Shown piece after piece: positions 15,760 to 31,091 of a stretch of 64,000 bases of DNA; the first letter of the stretch is position 1; each line of letters opens with the position of its first letter. The notes beneath the pieces were generated by a model. It was not told the origin of the DNA, did not search any database, and saw only the letters and a list, made by a program, of their open reading frames with translations. Source of the DNA: Escherichia phage EcSzw-2; the sequence record MH791400.1. One strand, given 5' to 3'. A program made the position numbers and the translations under genes.

Positions 15760-15942
15760 TCAATTGTTTTCGTTATGTTTCTTTCCAGTTCCACCACAAT
15801 AAGGGCAGCAACCATAACTTACCAGACCTGTACCGTCGCAATCTTCACACTCTTCTGCACCGAAGTAGTGTTTAGCCAGAAGGTATCCAATTACAATCAG
15901 GCCACCAAATGACAGGATTAACTCTAACCAATAACCTTGCAT
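15760..15942 (-). CDS. small membrane-anchored protein with two DnaJ-type CxxCxGxG zinc-finger repeats (60 aa)
   Basis: TM segment LELILSFGGLIVIGYLLA followed by CEDCDGTG and CPYCGGTG. Confidence 0.5.
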   Translation of the reverse strand: MQGYWLELILSFGGLIVIGYLLAKHYFGAEECEDCDGTGLVSYGCCPYCGGTGKKHNENN

Positions 15943-16259
15943 AACTTCTCTCCAACATGTTTGTACAGGATGAAACTACGGTCATGAACAATACTTGAGG
16001 CAACTGCAAAGTTCTCTTCCAGTATTGCTTTGTTCGGATTATAGAATCCGTCTAAGAATTGGTCAAGTGCTAATTGGTGATTTTGTGGAAGACCTTTAAC
16101 ATAAATCTTCATAGAAAGCGTGGCAACCACTTCACCTTGAAGTTCATCTCGTGCTGCTACCAAGATTTGGTTAATGAACTTGTGACCATCTTCAGGACGT
16201 TTAATGTCATCCCAATTCTCTTCCAAGACCATATTGATATTCATCTGTTTGATTTTCAT
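15924..16259 (-). CDS. hypothetical protein (111 aa)
   Basis: ORF in operon. Confidence 0.5.
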   Translation of the reverse strand: MKIKQMNINMVLEENWDDIKRPEDGHKFINQILVAARDELQGEVVATLSMKIYVKGLPQNHQLALDQFLDGFYNPNKAILEENFAVASSIVHDRSFILYKHVGEKLCKVIG

Positions 16260-16275
16260 AACATTCTCCAGAAAT

Positions 16276-16296
16276 TAAAAAGGCTCCCGTAGGAGC
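16276..16296 (-). terminator. rho-independent terminator
   Basis: minus strand ggctccTACGggagcc + ttttt downstream of NAMPT-like gene. Confidence 0.7.
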
Positions 16297-16312
16297 CTCT
16301 TATAATACTTAT

Positions 16313-18139
16313 TTAAAGCTGTCTGTCAATAACATTTCGTACATCACGAAGGTTAACGTAGCCATATGGCTGAGAGTCGCAGAATACCAGCTTCAGAGCA
16401 CACTGAGGGTTATCCAGTACACTTTCAAACTCTGCAAAACCAAAGCCATCCACAGCTTCCAGCTTATCACCATCCCACATAGGGACTACACCACCAAAAG
16501 CAGACTTCTTAAGACCACTGTCAGTTTTAGGGTCTTTTGCCAGCATGATTTCTTCACCATCCATCTGTGCAAGAGTTGCTTTAACAGCAAATGCAAAGGT
16601 ATCACGAGTCATGTACTGGTAAGTGTATGAACCAACACCGAAGACAACGTTAGAACTTGCAAAGCCCTTTTCAGCAAGACGGCTAAGAATCTCTTCAGCA
16701 CGTTCCAGAGTGATAGAATCACCGTAGATTAAACCAATGTGTTCATCAAGAACTTTGTAGCCTTTAGAGTTTACAGCGCCACCAAAAATGTTGTACAGAG
16801 TCTTGATAGCACCATCAATTTCTGCTGTCAGCATTGGTTTAACAACAACTTGACCAGTCTTGTAAGTATCTTTCAGGTTAACTGTATCAGCAACGTTAAA
16901 GTCTTCTGCATCAACAACCAACTCATAACCTTCAGAGATTAGCCAAGCAGAGAAGCCATAGCCCATATCTGACATGTTGCAATTAAGGATTGCATCAAGC
17001 AGATAAGTATTGTTAGGAGAAATGGTTGACATGTGTTTGTAATACATGCTCTTAGCATTTTCCCATTCAATTGCACGATAGCCAGTAACAATGTGTACAG
17101 GGTCACCGGAATCTGGACGGATTACCAGTTTACCATCACGTTTCAGGATTACTTCACGGAGTTCTGGAAGAATCTCTGTAACTGTACGCCAGAAGTTGTA
17201 AGTATCGGACACAACACTTGCAATACCAGTTGGGTAAACATCTACCAGCAGGTGTTCAAATGTTTTAACCTCACCACGCCAGCGTTTAGCATCCAGCAAA
17301 CTATCAGACTGCATGATGTACTGTGAGTGAATGTCATCTTCTGTCAGGTCTTTCATATTCCATGAAATGTTTGCACACATCACAGAGTGTTCAGTTGCTG
17401 GAACAGAGTTACCAATATCACTTACAGTCATGAACTGACCATATGCACGTTTAGCAGTATACACAGCAGGGAAGCTATCAGTACCTTTAAAGCTTGTCAG
17501 GTGACCTACAGCATTGAAAGCATCATCTGTGAATCCAGACATACCACGCATTGCAAAGTCGTGACACTGCCAAGGAAGATGGAAGTCATTGTCACAGGTC
17601 TTATCAGACCAAGATTTACAGATACGTTTGTAATGCAGTGCAATAGTTGCAATGGTACAAGCTTTCCAGATTTCAGCAGAGAAAGCATCTTCCAGATAAC
17701 CAGCTACCCAATGGAAGCCCTCAACGGTATTTTTGAAGATAATCATTGGAACACGCATAGGAACGATTGTGCCTTCTTCAACAGAGTACACTGCAACTGG
17801 CAGATAGCCTAAGTCGTGAAGTTCTTCCCAATGATGACGCTTGATAGCATCTGCACCGAGAACACCATTCATGATTTCCAAGATTTCATCAACAGCTTCT
17901 TTCTTATCACGTTCGAAGAAAGTTGCATTCCAATGGTCTACTAAGTAATCTTTAACGAAACGTTGGATACCAAAAGCAACTACACCGTCAGTCTCCAAAG
18001 GAGTGTTAAACCACTTATTACCACGAGGTGTAAGGTTCAGCATCAGGTGCTGAGTTGTACTTGGGTACTGGTAGATGTGACCAGCTTTGTAAGCATCTGC
18101 GTTAAGACCTGCTGGAACTGCATAGATTGATTTAGACAT
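16313..18139 (-). CDS. nadV: nicotinamide phosphoribosyltransferase family protein (NAMPT/NadV-like; candidate Namat-type NAD+ synthesis enzyme)
   Basis: 608 aa; N-terminal ...NADAYKAGH... (DxYK) and C-terminal ...FGVGSYTYQYMTRDTFAFAVKAT...LAKDPKTDSGLKKSAFGG... are NAMPT hallmarks. Confidence 0.75.
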   Translation of the reverse strand: MSKSIYAVPAGLNADAYKAGHIYQYPSTTQHLMLNLTPRGNKWFNTPLETDGVVAFGIQRFVKDYLVDHWNATFFERDKKEAVDEILEIMNGVLGADAIKRHHWEELHDLGYLPVAVYSVEEGTIVPMRVPMIIFKNTVEGFHWVAGYLEDAFSAEIWKACTIATIALHYKRICKSWSDKTCDNDFHLPWQCHDFAMRGMSGFTDDAFNAVGHLTSFKGTDSFPAVYTAKRAYGQFMTVSDIGNSVPATEHSVMCANISWNMKDLTEDDIHSQYIMQSDSLLDAKRWRGEVKTFEHLLVDVYPTGIASVVSDTYNFWRTVTEILPELREVILKRDGKLVIRPDSGDPVHIVTGYRAIEWENAKSMYYKHMSTISPNNTYLLDAILNCNMSDMGYGFSAWLISEGYELVVDAEDFNVADTVNLKDTYKTGQVVVKPMLTAEIDGAIKTLYNIFGGAVNSKGYKVLDEHIGLIYGDSITLERAEEILSRLAEKGFASSNVVFGVGSYTYQYMTRDTFAFAVKATLAQMDGEEIMLAKDPKTDSGLKKSAFGGVVPMWDGDKLEAVDGFGFAEFESVLDNPQCALKLVFCDSQPYGYVNLRDVRNVIDRQL

Positions 18140-18159
18140 GTTTTAATCTCTCTCAAAGT

Positions 18160-18180
18160 GGGGCTTTGCAGCCCCTGATT
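18160..18180 (-). other. GNRA-loop GC hairpin (ggggcu-GCAA-agcccc) between Prs-like and NAMPT-like genes; no strong U-run
   Basis: ggggctttgcagcccc on + strand; same element at ~26159; relatives at ~13302 and ~49775. Confidence 0.5.
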
Positions 18181-18184
18181 AATT

Positions 18185-19066
18185 TTAGTAAATGTTTGCT
18201 ACAGTTACTTGACCGAAATGAGTCAGACCACGGTCTTTTGCACTACCTAAAGAGTCTGTAGTGTAGATGTGTGAAATCCCATTGTCAAGCAGGTTTTCAA
18301 CACCTTTTGAGAAAATACCATGTGTTACATACAGTTCAACTTTAGCTGCTCCAGCTTCACGAAGATACTTGGCTGCTTCAATGAATGTACGACCACCATC
18401 ACAGATATCATCAATGATGAGTACAGTTTTACCAGTCAGGTCTACATCATCCAGTAGACGCATACCTGTAATCTCACCAGTCTTCAGGTCTCGAACCTTA
18501 GCCATTGTAACGTAAGGCTTATCAACCTCTTTAGCCGTCTCTGCAATCTTCTTAGCTGCTCCTGCATCTGGTGCTACCAAGAAATCAATGGTAGGCTCAC
18601 TGGCATAGTGTGCTGCAACATCTTTTTGATGGATGTTCTGGAAGCATTTGAACAGGTTATCTGCAACGTCACTGTGGGCGTCTAGAGCACATACTGCATC
18701 AAAACCCATTGCATTGACCAGATTAGCAAACACCTTTAGTGCTGCTGCATCACCTTTAAATATGTGACGGTCATAGCGAGCATTTGGCAGATAAGCAAAG
18801 ATGACAGTTTTCATAGTTGCTTGCTGAGGAATCATTTTGTCGATTGCCTCTTTTGCCAGAGCTAAAGCAAACAATGTGTCTTTGTCATAACCCTGTACAG
18901 TGAAGATGACGTTCTCAATCTGGGAAGCATTCTCTTCAGCATAGATTACTAAGTCTTCAGAGAAGTTACCACCAATTTCTCCAGACGGGAACTGGATAAT
19001 GTTGAACTCTTCTTGGTGAGCACCTTTTTTCTGTGAGTGCAACAGTACGCTAATAATAGTTTTCAT
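18185..19066 (-). CDS. prs: ribose-phosphate pyrophosphokinase (PRPP synthetase) family protein; could equally be an ADPR-pyrophosphate synthetase (Adps-like)
   Basis: 293 aa; PRPP-binding loop VLIIDDICDGGRT; directly upstream of NAMPT-like gene. Confidence 0.7.
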   Translation of the reverse strand: MKTIISVLLHSQKKGAHQEEFNIIQFPSGEIGGNFSEDLVIYAEENASQIENVIFTVQGYDKDTLFALALAKEAIDKMIPQQATMKTVIFAYLPNARYDRHIFKGDAAALKVFANLVNAMGFDAVCALDAHSDVADNLFKCFQNIHQKDVAAHYASEPTIDFLVAPDAGAAKKIAETAKEVDKPYVTMAKVRDLKTGEITGMRLLDDVDLTGKTVLIIDDICDGGRTFIEAAKYLREAGAAKVELYVTHGIFSKGVENLLDNGISHIYTTDSLGSAKDRGLTHFGQVTVANIY

Positions 19067-19078
19067 CTTTAATCTCTC

Positions 19079-19429
19079 TCAATCAAAAGTTACAAAGGTT
19101 ACAGCCATAGCTGTTTTGCATTTTTGTGGATTCACAATGTGATAGATTACTGAACAGTTATCTGTTCCATCTGGGACTGGTTTTGTCCAAGTGCGTTCAA
19201 CATTTGGTTCACCGAGTTCTTTGTAGAATCCATTTGTGTGATGGTCAATCATCTCAAGTGCTAATGAGTCTGGTACATGACCACGAATCATATACATCTC
19301 ACAACCATTGCCAGCATCACTTACAAGGTCTTTTATTTCCCAATCTGCTCTAGCCACGATAAGTTGCCTTATAAACAGTTTCGAATTTCGACAAGAGAGA
19401 TATTGCCAGAACTGCATATTCTCTGTCAA
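19079..19429 (-). CDS. hypothetical protein (116 aa; start uncertain, overlaps HNH ORF)
   Basis: ORF in operon. Confidence 0.4.
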   Translation of the reverse strand: MTENMQFWQYLSCRNSKLFIRQLIVARADWEIKDLVSDAGNGCEMYMIRGHVPDSLALEMIDHHTNGFYKELGEPNVERTWTKPVPDGTDNCSVIYHIVNPQKCKTAMAVTFVTFD

Positions 19430-19865
19430 GCATTGGTGGCATATTATTTTTTAGATACTCTTTTTGTTCTTCGTAAGTCATCTTTGGAGTATCTAAAACC
19501 TTCTCACCTTGCTTCTGGTTATCAATCTTAGTTTGGATAAACCAGTTTGCACAGTGGTGTTCACCACCTTTTGTGACTGGCTTGTGATGGCCTAATGTAA
19601 AGGCTTGCTTGCCAGAATAACGACAAAGCTTGTTAAGAGTTGCAATAGTGTTCTTGACAACACAGTATTCATAAAGGTTGTCAATTGTATAGTGAGGGTA
19701 GTATGCAAAGAGGGAACTGTCACGGAACTTCCCACGATTCCAGAGAACCATGTGATTAGAGTTGGAAGGGTCATACTGATGGGAATCAATAAACTCTTGA
19801 CGTTCATCAAAGTCAAGTCTAAGAACAGACATTGCAGCAGCACGTTTCAAGTTAGGTAAGTACAT
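19350..19865 (-). CDS. HNH endonuclease (probable free-standing homing endonuclease)
   Basis: Motif GHHKPVTKGGEHHCANW...N (HNH His/Asn core). Confidence 0.55.
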   Translation of the reverse strand: MYLPNLKRAAAMSVLRLDFDERQEFIDSHQYDPSNSNHMVLWNRGKFRDSSLFAYYPHYTIDNLYEYCVVKNTIATLNKLCRYSGKQAFTLGHHKPVTKGGEHHCANWFIQTKIDNQKQGEKVLDTPKMTYEEQKEYLKNNMPPMLDREYAVLAISLLSKFETVYKATYRG

Positions 19866-19879
19866 TTTCTCTCCAAAAT

Positions 19880-19904
19880 AAAAAGGGAACCTTTTACAGT
19901 TCCC
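19880..19904 (-). terminator. rho-independent terminator
   Basis: minus strand gggaac-tgtaaaag-gttccc + ttttt. Confidence 0.65.
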
Positions 19905-19917
19905 TAATCATAACGAA

Positions 19918-20229
19918 TTATTGAAGCTCTTTCAAGACTCTTACAAAATCTTCTTGGCTTACATCCGTCTTAAGTGATTCAGACGGTTTGACAAGGTTGT
20001 TTGTACACACAATCTTCTTGTGTTTTTTGTCATAAGTCAGCTTCAGTTGGTGCAATTCTTTATTGGATTCACTCTGTGAGTTATACATCTCAACAGCCTT
20101 TTTGAATGGTGTATACTCACCACCAAAAGCTAAAAATCCTGTACCACAATAATGTGCGTTATGTTTGTCATACATGAACTGGCAAAGCATTAAAATCTGA
20201 AGCTTACGAGTGTTATAAATCTTGCTCAT
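19918..20229 (-). CDS. hypothetical protein (103 aa)
   Basis: ORF followed by a terminator. Confidence 0.55.
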   Translation of the reverse strand: MSKIYNTRKLQILMLCQFMYDKHNAHYCGTGFLAFGGEYTPFKKAVEMYNSQSESNKELHQLKLTYDKKHKKIVCTNNLVKPSESLKTDVSQEDFVRVLKELQ

Positions 20230-28804: not shown

Positions 28805-29129
28805 GATATTTATCCAAGTTTCGTTTCAGGTAAAGCCACCCATCATCAGTGCGTTCAACACCCATGAACAGTGGAGCCGTTACAACCTTTCCAAACGTAT
28901 TACGATGCTGACAAATCTCATAAGAATACGTTTTCTCAATGTCCAGGCCATATTTGAAAAGAACTGCTTTCAAGACCTGTTCATTATCCAGTAAAGTTTC
29001 TGGTGTCTCTCCATATTTTGCTAACAGTGAATCACTCATAAACACTGTCATAGAGAGATTATAGTTTGAGAAATGGCTCTTTGGAGCCACCTCTTCAGTA
29101 TTAATGTTCTGTGAATCCATTATAACCAA
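28797..29129 (-). CDS. hypothetical protein (110 aa)
   Basis: ORF in operon. Confidence 0.5.
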   Translation of the reverse strand: MVIMDSQNINTEEVAPKSHFSNYNLSMTVFMSDSLLAKYGETPETLLDNEQVLKAVLFKYGLDIEKTYSYEICQHRNTFGKVVTAPLFMGVERTDDGWLYLKRNLDKYHV

Positions 29130-29856
29130 CCCCTTTTAACCAATTCTTCAGGTTATTTGCATCATAGTTCAGTTTCGGGTATGAGGTCACATGGAACTTC
29201 TCACCGTCATAGTAAACAATATCTGCAAGCCATAATCCGTTTTCTCGGCAGAAGTCTTTGTCTGCTTTTGAACTGATTGGTCGAACTTCTGTGAAGTCAC
29301 TCAATCCAAGGTCTTTCAAACTTCCTACAAGACCTTTACAGATAACGCATGTGTCAGATGTTACCACGAATAATTCTTTGCTTTCAAGTTCCGCAATGAA
29401 CTCTGCAAGCTGTACTTTAGGAAGATTAGACTGCTTCATAACCTTCTTATCAGACTCACGGATAATGGCGTACCATTCTTTTCCATCAATCATTGAGGCA
29501 CGTACATGACATTCATCACCAGTATACTTCTCGATATCTGCAAGACGCTTCAAAGCTTCTTCGTAGTTATCGGTATACTTCAGGTTGTTATTCTCACAGA
29601 CTGCTTTCATAGCTCCGTCATGGTCATGCTGTGAAAGGTAAATCAGTCCATCAAGAACATACTGTAAATCCGCCTGAGCATCAAGAGCCTCAATAGGGTC
29701 TTTTTCATCAACAGCTTTTAAAAGCTCTTTGGCCTCTTCTAACATACAAAGTGCTTGGCTACGCATTGAAGACCAGTACTCAGGTGTATAAGGAGTCAAC
29801 GGGGTTTTACCACAACGCTGATTCCAAGTTAAAACGGATTCTCTGGAATTAAACAT
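29101..29856 (-). CDS. hypothetical protein; N-terminal half weakly MazG-like (nucleotide pyrophosphohydrolase)
   Basis: Acidic helical motif LEEAKELLKAVDEKDPIEALDAQADLQYVLDG; weak. Confidence 0.3.
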   Translation of the reverse strand: MFNSRESVLTWNQRCGKTPLTPYTPEYWSSMRSQALCMLEEAKELLKAVDEKDPIEALDAQADLQYVLDGLIYLSQHDHDGAMKAVCENNNLKYTDNYEEALKRLADIEKYTGDECHVRASMIDGKEWYAIIRESDKKVMKQSNLPKVQLAEFIAELESKELFVVTSDTCVICKGLVGSLKDLGLSDFTEVRPISSKADKDFCRENGLWLADIVYYDGEKFHVTSYPKLNYDANNLKNWLKGVGYNGFTEH

Positions 29857-30083
29857 TAAACCTCCTGAAACAGTTTCTGCTGAGACTCAATATAATCCAG
29901 TCGGCCTTTCAGTTCAACACGTTTGTTAATCAGGTGCTGAATCTGGGACTCAAGAGCCTCCATTTCGGACTCCGTAGCTTCTTTAGCTTTGACAATTGCA
30001 TCTTTCAGTGCTGCAATGTGACTGTCAATCTTAGCTACGTGGTCATTATTAATTTTGTTAAATATCATCTTATTCTCTCTCAT
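29856..30083 (-). CDS. small coiled-coil protein (75 aa)
   Basis: Heptad-like helical sequence. Confidence 0.45.
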   Translation of the reverse strand: MRENKMIFNKINNDHVAKIDSHIAALKDAIVKAKEATESEMEALESQIQHLINKRVELKGRLDYIESQQKLFQEV

Positions 30084-30570
30084 TAAGTTTCATGATTTTA
30101 TGGATTCTCTTCTCAGCATCTTCATAAGTCTCTTTAGTCAGAAACTTGATTGCTGCAATGTTTGCATTGTAGAAGAGTCGAAGCTTGGAGTCAATCCTTT
30201 TTGTCATGACGTCAAACTTATGTTGAAGGTTAGCTTCTCCGTAGACCAACCCACCTCGCGTATAATAAGTTTGCACAATATAGAAGTCAAACTCTTTTTC
30301 ACCGAAAGTTTCAATATCTTTCTTAATGTACTCAGAAGAGGTCTGGTAAACCTTCCAGTCACTCTCTTTTGTCACAATCTTACGTCTGGTCTTTCCAGCT
30401 ACTTTCTTCTTGGTGACATTGTTAAACTGCTTCTTACCCAAATAGTACTGTCCAGTCTTTTTGCAGTACACTAAGTAGACAAACCCAAAGTATTTAGTTG
30501 GGTCAATTTCTCCACAAAGTGAAATCCAATGTCCATATTCAGGGCAATTACCAAAACCTTTAATCTTCAT
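30070..30570 (-). CDS. GIY-YIG homing endonuclease (putative)
   Basis: FGFVYLVYCKKTGQYYLGKK resembles the GIY-(x10)-YIG motif. Confidence 0.5.
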   Translation of the reverse strand: MKIKGFGNCPEYGHWISLCGEIDPTKYFGFVYLVYCKKTGQYYLGKKQFNNVTKKKVAGKTRRKIVTKESDWKVYQTSSEYIKKDIETFGEKEFDFYIVQTYYTRGGLVYGEANLQHKFDVMTKRIDSKLRLFYNANIAAIKFLTKETYEDAEKRIHKIMKLNERE

Positions 30571-31091
30571 TCATAAGTTTCTCCATGATTTGTGAACTCT
30601 CTATGAAGTTCTTCTCTTTTCTTTCTGACTGCTTCTGCTGCATCAGTAATATTTTCAAAGACCCCTAAATGATAGCACACCTTTAGGTGTTTGACTTGAG
30701 CAACCCACTTTCCAGTATGCTTGTGGAAATAGACACCCTTAATCCCAGATTTATTATCTTTCCTTTTTGCAGCATTACAATTATTTTGTGACCTGCTGCA
30801 AGCCCTGAGATTGCCAAACCAGTTTTCATCCCTTACACCATTACGATGGTCAACATATTTAGGGATGTAACCAAGCATATACAAGAAAGCAAGCCTGTGT
30901 GCTGCATAACACTTACTAAATAACTTTATGTACACATATCCAGAGTGGTGTTTTACCCCAGCTACAGAGCCAGCCTTTACTTTGCTTGACCTATCCACAA
31001 TCCAAGTAAAGACCCCTGTTTCGGGGTCATAGTTTAGATATTCTTTAAGAGTTTGCTGAGTCAACATTTGGAGTCCACCCATACTTCTCAA
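30567..31091 (-). CDS. HNH homing endonuclease with AP2-like DNA-binding domain
   Basis: ...YIPKYVDHRNGVRDENWFGNLRAC... (HNH) and SGIKGVYFHKHTGKWVAQV (AP2-like). Confidence 0.65.
   Translation of the reverse strand: MRSMGGLQMLTQQTLKEYLNYDPETGVFTWIVDRSSKVKAGSVAGVKHHSGYVYIKLFSKCYAAHRLAFLYMLGYIPKYVDHRNGVRDENWFGNLRACSRSQNNCNAAKRKDNKSGIKGVYFHKHTGKWVAQVKHLKVCYHLGVFENITDAAEAVRKKREELHREFTNHGETYE

Follow-up and report, generated by a model that had tools for sequence, protein, structure and literature searches.

A Prs-like and NAMPT-like gene pair of Escherichia phage EcSzw-2 is very probably a NARP1 operon for NAD+ reconstitution

Introduction

When a phage carries a gene for a phosphoribosyl pyrophosphate (PRPP) synthetase-like (Prs-like) enzyme directly upstream of a gene for a NAMPT-like enzyme, does the pair make nicotinamide mononucleotide (NMN) by classical salvage, or does it rebuild NAD+ from ADP-ribose (ADPR)? 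The question is raised by such a pair in a 64,000-nucleotide stretch of Escherichia phage EcSzw-2 (record MH791400.1), the whole of which we call the window. A preliminary description of this DNA had named both routes and presented the pair as a candidate for the second, NAD+ reconstitution pathway 1 (NARP1), whose two enzymes are called Adps and Namat. Our analysis predicts with high confidence that the pair is a NARP1 operon, because its products are orthologous to the NARP1 proteins of phage Bas63, bear Adps and Namat signatures, include a protein with the Namat fold, come without a detectable NMN adenylyltransferase (NMNAT) and are listed in published tables. The NARP1-type reading is thus supported by Bas63 orthology and signatures, but the "candidate" status is not, since the pair had already been catalogued.

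NARP1 (Adps plus Namat) was discovered by Osterman et al. as genes 79-80 of Bas63 (JohannRWettstein; Felixounavirus, BASEL). Bas63 without these genes becomes sensitive to SIR2-HerA, and ADPR-pyrophosphate (ADPR-PP) builds up in infected cells (bioRxiv 10.1101/2024.02.11.579819). With purified SpbetaL1 homologues, Adps converts ADPR and ATP to ADPR-PP, and Namat converts ADPR-PP and nicotinamide to NAD+ (bioRxiv 10.1101/2024.02.11.579819). The Adps reaction has been demonstrated for both the SpbetaL1 and the ICP1 enzymes (bioRxiv 10.1101/2024.02.11.579819; PMC13586617).

For the window pair, we infer both reactions and the counter-defence phenotype from this orthologue literature. A host defence (SIR2-HerA, DSR1/2, type I Thoeris or SEFIR) would cleave NAD+ to ADPR and nicotinamide. 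Adps would move ATP's beta,gamma-pyrophosphate onto the 1'' hydroxyl carried by the terminal ribose in ADPR to give ADPR-PP, and Namat would swap the pyrophosphate of ADPR-PP for nicotinamide, giving NAD+ directly. The route would pass through no NMN intermediate and would involve no adenylyltransferase.

Results

The gene pair and its relatives

The two genes of the pair are:
18185-19066, minus strand: adps, Prs-like, 293 amino acids (aa), confirmed open reading frame (ORF), putative ADP-ribose pyrophosphokinase
16313-18139, minus strand: namat, NAMPT-like, 608 aa, confirmed ORF, putative nicotinamide ADP-ribose transferase

The arrangement first reported, a 293-aa Prs-family gene directly upstream of a 608-aa NAMPT-family gene, is exact in its coordinates and agrees with the Pfam families, which are Pribosyltran and Pribosyl_synth for the Prs-like protein and NAPRTase (E 4.7e-31) and NAMPT_N for the NAMPT-like protein. 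The motifs quoted with it are likewise in place: the Prs-like protein contains VLIIDDICDGGRT, and the NAMPT-like protein has DAYK close to its N-terminus. Bas63 gp79 (293 aa) shares 78% identity with the Prs-like protein in a gap-free alignment, and Bas63 gp80 (593 aa) shares 75% identity with the NAMPT-like protein. The window and Bas63 (MZ501086.1) also have a common gene order: nrdG, small ORFs, a 171-aa ORF, an ORF of ~92 aa, adps, namat, small ORFs, rIIA and rIIB.

Over the region 16000-19500, identity is 100% with Escherichia phage EcSzw_1 (MH791413.1; a Suspvirus of the Ounavirinae) and 94-96% with phages mistaenkt and SUSP2. A total of 249 phage records match this region, most of them from Felix O1-like phages that infect Escherichia, Salmonella, Shigella and Citrobacter. 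In the supplementary Adps and Namat tables of the discovery paper, the EcSzw_1 protein MH791413_00033 is an Adps homologue with Namat nearby and MH791413_00032 is an "Adps-associated" Namat, the label that marks the NARP1 clade in the published Namat table; the Adps of EcSzw-2 (MH791400) is identical, and so is its Namat over the N-terminal excerpt given (bioRxiv 10.1101/2024.02.11.579819). Since the EcSzw_1 proteins are in the discovery tables, the pair is already known, as a catalogued instance of NARP1. At least 859 NARP1 operons have been catalogued, the window pair being one of them.

Outside the pair region the window deviates from MH791413.1, with indels in the first kilobase and several N's in the first 7 kb (positions 298-300, 665, 1866, 2773, 3093, 3691, 4506, 5537 and 6977). 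The MH791413.1 record is flagged UNVERIFIED, and ORF calls in the first 7 kb are less reliable.

The Prs-like protein has the signatures of Adps

An alignment of the window protein with E. coli Prs and with the Adps enzymes of ICP1 and Bas63 places two sites of Adps:
18383-18412, minus strand: pyrophosphate (PP, donor) loop DDICDGGRTF of Adps, residues 219-228, aligned with D212-F221 of ICP1 Adps
18497-18499, minus strand: catalytic lysine K190 of Adps, aligned with K185 of ICP1 Adps (K162 of SpbetaL1)

Identity to E. coli Prs is only 25%. The role of the donor loop in Adps has been described for the ICP1 enzyme, in which the K185A mutation abolishes ADPR-PP formation (PMC13586617). At the aligned site the loop reads DDICDGGRTF in the window, DDICDGAASF in ICP1 and DDMIDTGGTL in E. 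coli Prs; the window protein does not have the ribose-5-phosphate loop DTGGT of Prs but DGGRT within DDICDGGRT. The acceptor residues R87, H121, D161, D212, D213 and D216 of ICP1 Adps correspond to R97, H131, D167, D219, D220 and D223 in the window, and I221, C222 and F228 (ICP1 F221) are also kept. The C-terminus is short (293 aa in total, compared to 315 aa for E. coli Prs), with C-terminal gaps shared with Bas63 and ICP1 Adps, and in the alignment the alpha11-alpha12 regulatory/filament module of Prs is lost. The protein fails all Prs equivalog cut-offs of NCBIfam, for example with 114.5 bits against 296. The sole Prs-type cut-off that it passes is that of the broad subfamily TIGR01251, and it lies far below the PRK-type subfamily models. 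Judged by these sequence features, by its identity to Bas63 Adps and by the published Adps table, the Prs-like protein groups with the phage Adps clade and not with cellular Prs.

The NAMPT-like protein has the fold and the selectivity clamp of Namat

The top PDB sequence matches of the NAMPT-like protein are 9w5w and 9w5x (E 7e-123); 9w5x is entitled "Crystal structure of Namat" and is the SpbetaL1 enzyme (PMC12774641). An AlphaFold2 model of the window protein (predicted local distance difference test, pLDDT, 92.5; predicted template modelling score, pTM, 0.91) was compared with the PDB by Foldseek, and this predicted structure retrieved the Namat entries 9w5x/9w5w at ranks 1-7 (E 2e-54, target TM-score 0.94), with NadV and mammalian NAMPT ranking below them. 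The comparison of profiles and structures proposed in the preliminary description therefore favours Adps signatures over Prs for the one protein and Namat as the closest fold over NAMPT for the other.

Namat is distinguished from Nampt by an adenine "selectivity clamp" made up of a helix motif and a loop (PMC12774641). The helix consensus is GSX-phi-X-phi-X-phi-TRD with aromatics at the X positions, and the third residue of the loop is Arg, Lys or Tyr, followed by a stacking fourth residue if the third is Lys or Tyr (PMC12774641). Both elements can be located in the window protein:
16601-16633, minus strand: selectivity-clamp helix GSYTYQYMTRD of Namat, residues 503-513, fitting the published Namat consensus
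18005-18028, minus strand: selectivity-clamp loop PRGNKWFN of Namat (K42, W43), with Lys third and an aromatic residue fourth

At the helix site SpbetaL1 Namat has GSFTYQYNTRD, Haemophilus ducreyi NadV GAQTYQRNTRD and Xanthomonas campestris pv. campestris (Xcc) Nampt GGALLQKVDRD. A loop with Lys third and an aromatic fourth has been described for Bas63 Namat (PMC12774641). The Nampt-like catalytic core is complete in the window protein (D15 and Y17, the Asp and Tyr contributed by the partner protomer, F195, R198, D221, the catalytic H251, R341 and D343).

Five homologues of ~495 aa (P0064, P0067, P0072, P0090 and P0091) are 43-45% identical to window Namat, and all five have the clamp motif GSF/YTYQYNTRD. 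The named sources of P0067, P0072, P0090 and P0091 are Klebsiella, Erwinia and Kosakonia. From their sequences, these proteins agree with the bacterial homologues of NARP1 that PMC12774641 reports. Further Namat homologues are listed from Cronobacter and Phytobacter, the motif check having covered the five others.

The family databases give other names. NCBIfam assigns window Namat the name "nicotinate phosphoribosyltransferase". The PHROG family phrog_12872 (547 positions, "nicotinamide phosphoribosyl transferase") is matched by Adps at profile positions 37-224 and by Namat at profile positions 373-533, a double match which implies, at the level of sequence profiles, fused Adps-Namat proteins in some phages. 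At the extreme end of the record of Escherichia phage Lambda_ev058 (LR597651.1, 47405-47524; hit H145), 40 aa are 77.5% identical to residues 39-78 of Namat; this stretch may stem from chimeric assembly or be left over from recombination.

Other routes to NAD+ are improbable

The statement that no NMNAT is recognizable in the window is borne out by Pfam and by homology searches. Among 62 concatenated ORFs of the early and middle regions, Pfam found no cytidylyltransferase, Nudix or NAD-synthase domain, and with E. coli NadR and NadD as queries neither tblastn nor phmmer returned a match below E = 2 from the window or the whole of EcSzw_1, which also answers the call for a genome-wide NMNAT search. 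The "putative NAD synthetase" of the GenBank annotation (EcSzw1_52, 30070-30570, minus strand) was considered as an NMNAT or NAD synthase and rejected: its product is a homing endonuclease of the SegE GIY-YIG type (Pfam E 3e-27), and the gene adjoins one for an HNH endonuclease at 30567-31091.

These results bear most directly on two other known reconstitution routes, NARP2 (Nampt plus a phage NMNAT) and NARP3, which is defined as PnuC plus a NadR-like bifunctional enzyme (PMC13464706). The presence of a NAMPT-family gene and of a "putative NAD synthetase" annotation in the genome could have pointed to either of them. The latter gene is the endonuclease just described, however, and the former encodes a protein labelled "Adps-associated" in the published Namat table. 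With neither an NMNAT nor a NadR homologue turning up in the window or in all of EcSzw_1 (E >= 2), no cytidylyltransferase or Nudix domain in the early and middle ORFs, and no Pfam match to PnuC or a NadR-like protein in the early-region ORFs, NARP2 and NARP3 are refuted at the level of gene content and we regard them as virtually excluded.

Classical salvage needs more careful weighing. Here the Prs-like enzyme would make PRPP, the NAMPT-like enzyme would make NMN, and host NadR or PncC/NadD would complete NAD+, so that the pair would boost the supply during infection. It is the route that the Pfam, PHROG and NCBIfam labels (Prs and NAMPT/NAPRT) suggest, and the conserved Nampt core residues and the NadR and NadD provided by E. 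coli are compatible with it. Set against this, the protection of Bas63 by its orthologues is retained even in a pncC nadR double-deletion host, and Namat offered both substrates yields NAD+ only (both bioRxiv 10.1101/2024.02.11.579819). The window protein, moreover, contains the adenine clamp that is missing from Nampt enzymes, the donor loop of Adps is remodelled and all Prs equivalog cut-offs are failed, and, unlike NARP2 phages, this phage has no detectable NMNAT of its own. We consider it very improbable that classical salvage is what the pair is for.

Several points nevertheless weigh against assigning the pair to NARP1. The biochemistry and genetics come from enzymes of other phages, and the SpbetaL1 and ICP1 enzymes studied in vitro are only 33-44% identical to those of the window. 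Three adenine-contacting phenylalanines of ICP1 Adps lack a direct counterpart in the alignment: F18 aligns with A16 (F16 in Bas63) in a weakly aligned N-terminal part; F92 aligns with I102, next to F103; and F223, a lid residue like F221, aligns with E230, Bas63 likewise having E. The two insertions in Namat, described below, are a further such point. Finally, Namat enzymes retain residual NMN formation from PRPP (bioRxiv 10.1101/2024.02.11.579819; PMC12774641), and because of this activity some contribution of classical salvage through host NadR or PncC is conceivable alongside NARP1.

The surplus length of Namat lies mainly in two insertions

The NAMPT homologue had been described as ~110 aa longer than is typical. 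This surplus is real, and compared to the solved Namat of 491-496 aa it derives mainly from two insertions, at residues ~256-291 and ~352-442:
17267-17374, minus strand: Namat insertion 1, residues 256-291, beginning 5 residues past the catalytic His251
16814-17086, minus strand: Namat insertion 2, residues 352-442, an ordered alpha/beta subdomain

Insertion 1 is helical in the model, with pLDDT blocks of 79 to 95 over the segment; this measures 36 aa in the window, and Bas63 has 22 aa there and the 495-aa homologues have 8 aa. Insertion 2 comes after the RPDSGDP strand; the window and Bas63 have 91 and 90 aa in this segment, respectively, other phage Namats have between 35 and 98 aa, the short homologues have 18 aa, and no solved structural relative was found for the ~90-aa subdomain. 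All five of the ~495-aa homologues checked are without both insertions. Since Bas63 Namat carries both and works in vivo, they are a lineage feature compatible with NARP1 activity.

A distant Macro-domain gene as a possible addition to NARP1

In three-gene NARP1-AP operons (Adps-Adpp-Namat), which overcome the aRES defence, Adpp is an assayed phosphatase (bioRxiv 10.64898/2026.01.28.702374). No Macro domain was found by Pfam or PHROGs among the operon neighbours of the window pair, within the two-gene distance that serves as the NARP1-AP criterion. The window does encode one further away:
7854-8636, minus strand: Macro-domain protein, 260 aa, annotated "putative phosphatase", Pfam Macro

Might this protein extend NARP1 from an unlinked position, by dephosphorylating the aRES product ADPR-1''-phosphate (ADPR-1''-P) to the ADPR that feeds the pair? 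Its best PDB sequence match is yeast Poa1p, an ADPR-1''-P phosphatase, to which the N-terminal ~155 aa are alike, and an alignment that spans the whole of Adpp, the assayed enzyme from Vibrio phage Gary, gives 30% identity (E 2e-17). The gene is kept at the same position in Bas63, where the orthologue is 69% identical. The NARP1-AP survey, in which neither Bas63 nor EcSzw_1 is listed, covered only genes within two of NARP1 (bioRxiv 10.64898/2026.01.28.702374), a range that would miss a distant Macro gene. On the other side stands the distance itself, ~8 kb and some 20 genes from the pair, together with the wide occurrence of homologues in 2843 phage records including T4 (H165) and T4-like phages, a count taken irrespective of their adps content. 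The top NCBIfam match, below the model cut-off, is the macro domain of DarG, a DNA de-ADP-ribosylase, and the ~105-aa C-terminal extension has no Adpp counterpart and no family match. The protein may help NARP1 against aRES from its unlinked position, or it may act against DarT; we put forward the former only tentatively, as rather unlikely. If it is true, Ounavirinae phages would be resistant to aRES.

Two proposals beyond the NARP1 assignment, such an unlinked, Macro-extended pathway in Ounavirinae and a function added by the Namat insertions that the crystallized enzyme does not have, were judged together and, on that joint estimate, appear unlikely.

Layout of the transcription unit and its neighbours

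The genes and hairpins around the pair are:
18160-18175, minus strand: intergenic RNA hairpin GGGGCU-GCAA-AGCCCC, 6-bp GC stem and GCAA loop, from fold energy
16278-16301, minus strand: terminator-like hairpin, 10-bp stem then TTTTTAATTT, 11 nt past the namat stop codon
19884-19905, minus strand: upstream terminator-like hairpin, 8-bp stem then TTTTTATTTT, bounding the transcription unit
19350-19865, minus strand: 171-aa ORF, HNH-like stretch HHKPVTKGGEHHCANW, weak HNH PHROG match (E 1e-4)
19079-19354, minus strand: 91-aa ORF, matching only PHROG families without known function

The two terminator-like hairpins enclose the pair together with the 171-aa and 91-aa ORFs, four genes in all. These two ORFs are conserved in Bas63 as gp77 and gp78. 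Accessory genes of the RyR-domain (RyDEP) or Macro type were sought among the neighbours; Pfam gave no match for 19350-19865, 19079-19429 and 15924-16259, and PHROGs gave, for 19350-19865, 19079-19354, 15924-16259 and 15760-15942, families of unknown function plus the weak HNH match of the 171-aa ORF.

Both genes of the pair are on the minus strand, with adps upstream of namat and a spacer of 45 nt from the adps stop to the namat start, well inside the 10 genes from a Namat homologue that the definition of Adps allows. The GC hairpin reported between the genes is found there, at -14.7 kcal/mol (z = -2.46 compared to shuffles). Its stem is identical and its loop differs in Bas63 and in Citrobacter phage Maleficent, and it is absent from Erwinia and Yersinia relatives, whose spacers are 13-20 nt. 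All three genera with the hairpin have one and the same stem, so that covariation gives it no support, and we assign the hairpin no function. As a terminator it is unconvincing, being without a U-tract on the coding strand and terminator-like only for the opposite strand. In Felix O1 (L015:1191-1476) an HNH endonuclease gene, ORF128, follows directly after adps, at the position of the hairpin spacer.

Sigma-70-like hexamers around the operon number 19, compared to an expectation of 12.2 +/- 3.4; several lie inside coding sequence, and most are probably due to chance. At two places (16278-16329 and 19884-19935, minus strand) a strong terminator-like hairpin begins only 0-1 nt past a sigma-70-like promoter of near-consensus sequence. 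These two promoters read TTGACA-16-TATTAT and TTGAAA-17-TATGAT, and a transcript from either would begin inside the hairpin. Such pairings may delimit cassettes of the early region.

Elsewhere in the window, 29101-29856 (minus strand) encodes a 251-aa MazG-like pyrophosphatase with a Pfam PRA-PH match at residues 12-86 (phrog_2144) and a long C-terminal region without family assignment.

Discussion

The pair belongs to the same subfamily as that of the NARP1 discovery phage and adds nothing new to the field. Its value lies in annotation, as GenBank, PHROGs, Pfam and NCBIfam still label the two proteins Prs and nicotinate/nicotinamide phosphoribosyltransferase. Annotation pipelines could recognize NARP1 by GS-aromatic-x-aromatic-x-aromatic-x-TRD in Namat, by the DDICDG loop and short C-terminus in Adps, by adps-namat adjacency and by the lack of an NMNAT in the genome. 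For phages used in therapy or typing, the presence of NARP1 predicts plating on hosts with SIR2-HerA, DSR, type I Thoeris or SEFIR. Such a phage would be predicted not to plate on aRES hosts unless a Macro protein helps.

Comparison with known systems

The closest known system is the NARP1 of Bas63. Both phages belong to the Ounavirinae, and the gene order, the flanking genes, the 45-nt spacer, the hairpin stem, the K-W clamp loop and the clamp helix GSYTYQYMTRD are the same. Bas63 differs in genus (Felixounavirus, compared to Suspvirus for the window), in a Namat insertion 1 that is 14-15 aa shorter (593 compared to 608 aa in total) and in the Adps N-terminus, which reads FFH instead of GAH.

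SpbetaL1 Namat (9w5w/9w5x; PMC12774641) is the closest solved structure. Its catalytic core and clamp helix are conserved in the window protein, whereas its length is ~490 aa, its structure-based identity is ~36%, both insertions are absent and the clamp loop has Arg40 in place of Lys-Trp. ICP1 Adps (PMC13586617), at 33% identity, shares with the window protein the catalytic lysine, the acceptor residues and the DDICDG loop and differs in that F18, F92 and F223 have no one-to-one match.

The NARP2 system of Vibrio phage KVP40 (NadV plus NatV) and the Nampt-type enzymes (human, Xanthomonas and H. ducreyi NadV) share the fold of window Namat as well as its nicotinamide/ribose-phosphate catalytic residues, among them the phosphorylatable histidine. 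They prefer PRPP, however, and lack the aromatic clamp motif, and in NARP2 phages Nampt is paired with an NMNAT, none of which is detected in the window phage. The NARP1-AP of Vibrio phage Gary resembles the window in its Adps and Namat core and in that a Macro phosphatase homologue is encoded; in Gary, Adpp is part of the operon, whereas the Macro gene of the window lies ~8 kb off and its product has an extra C-terminal region.

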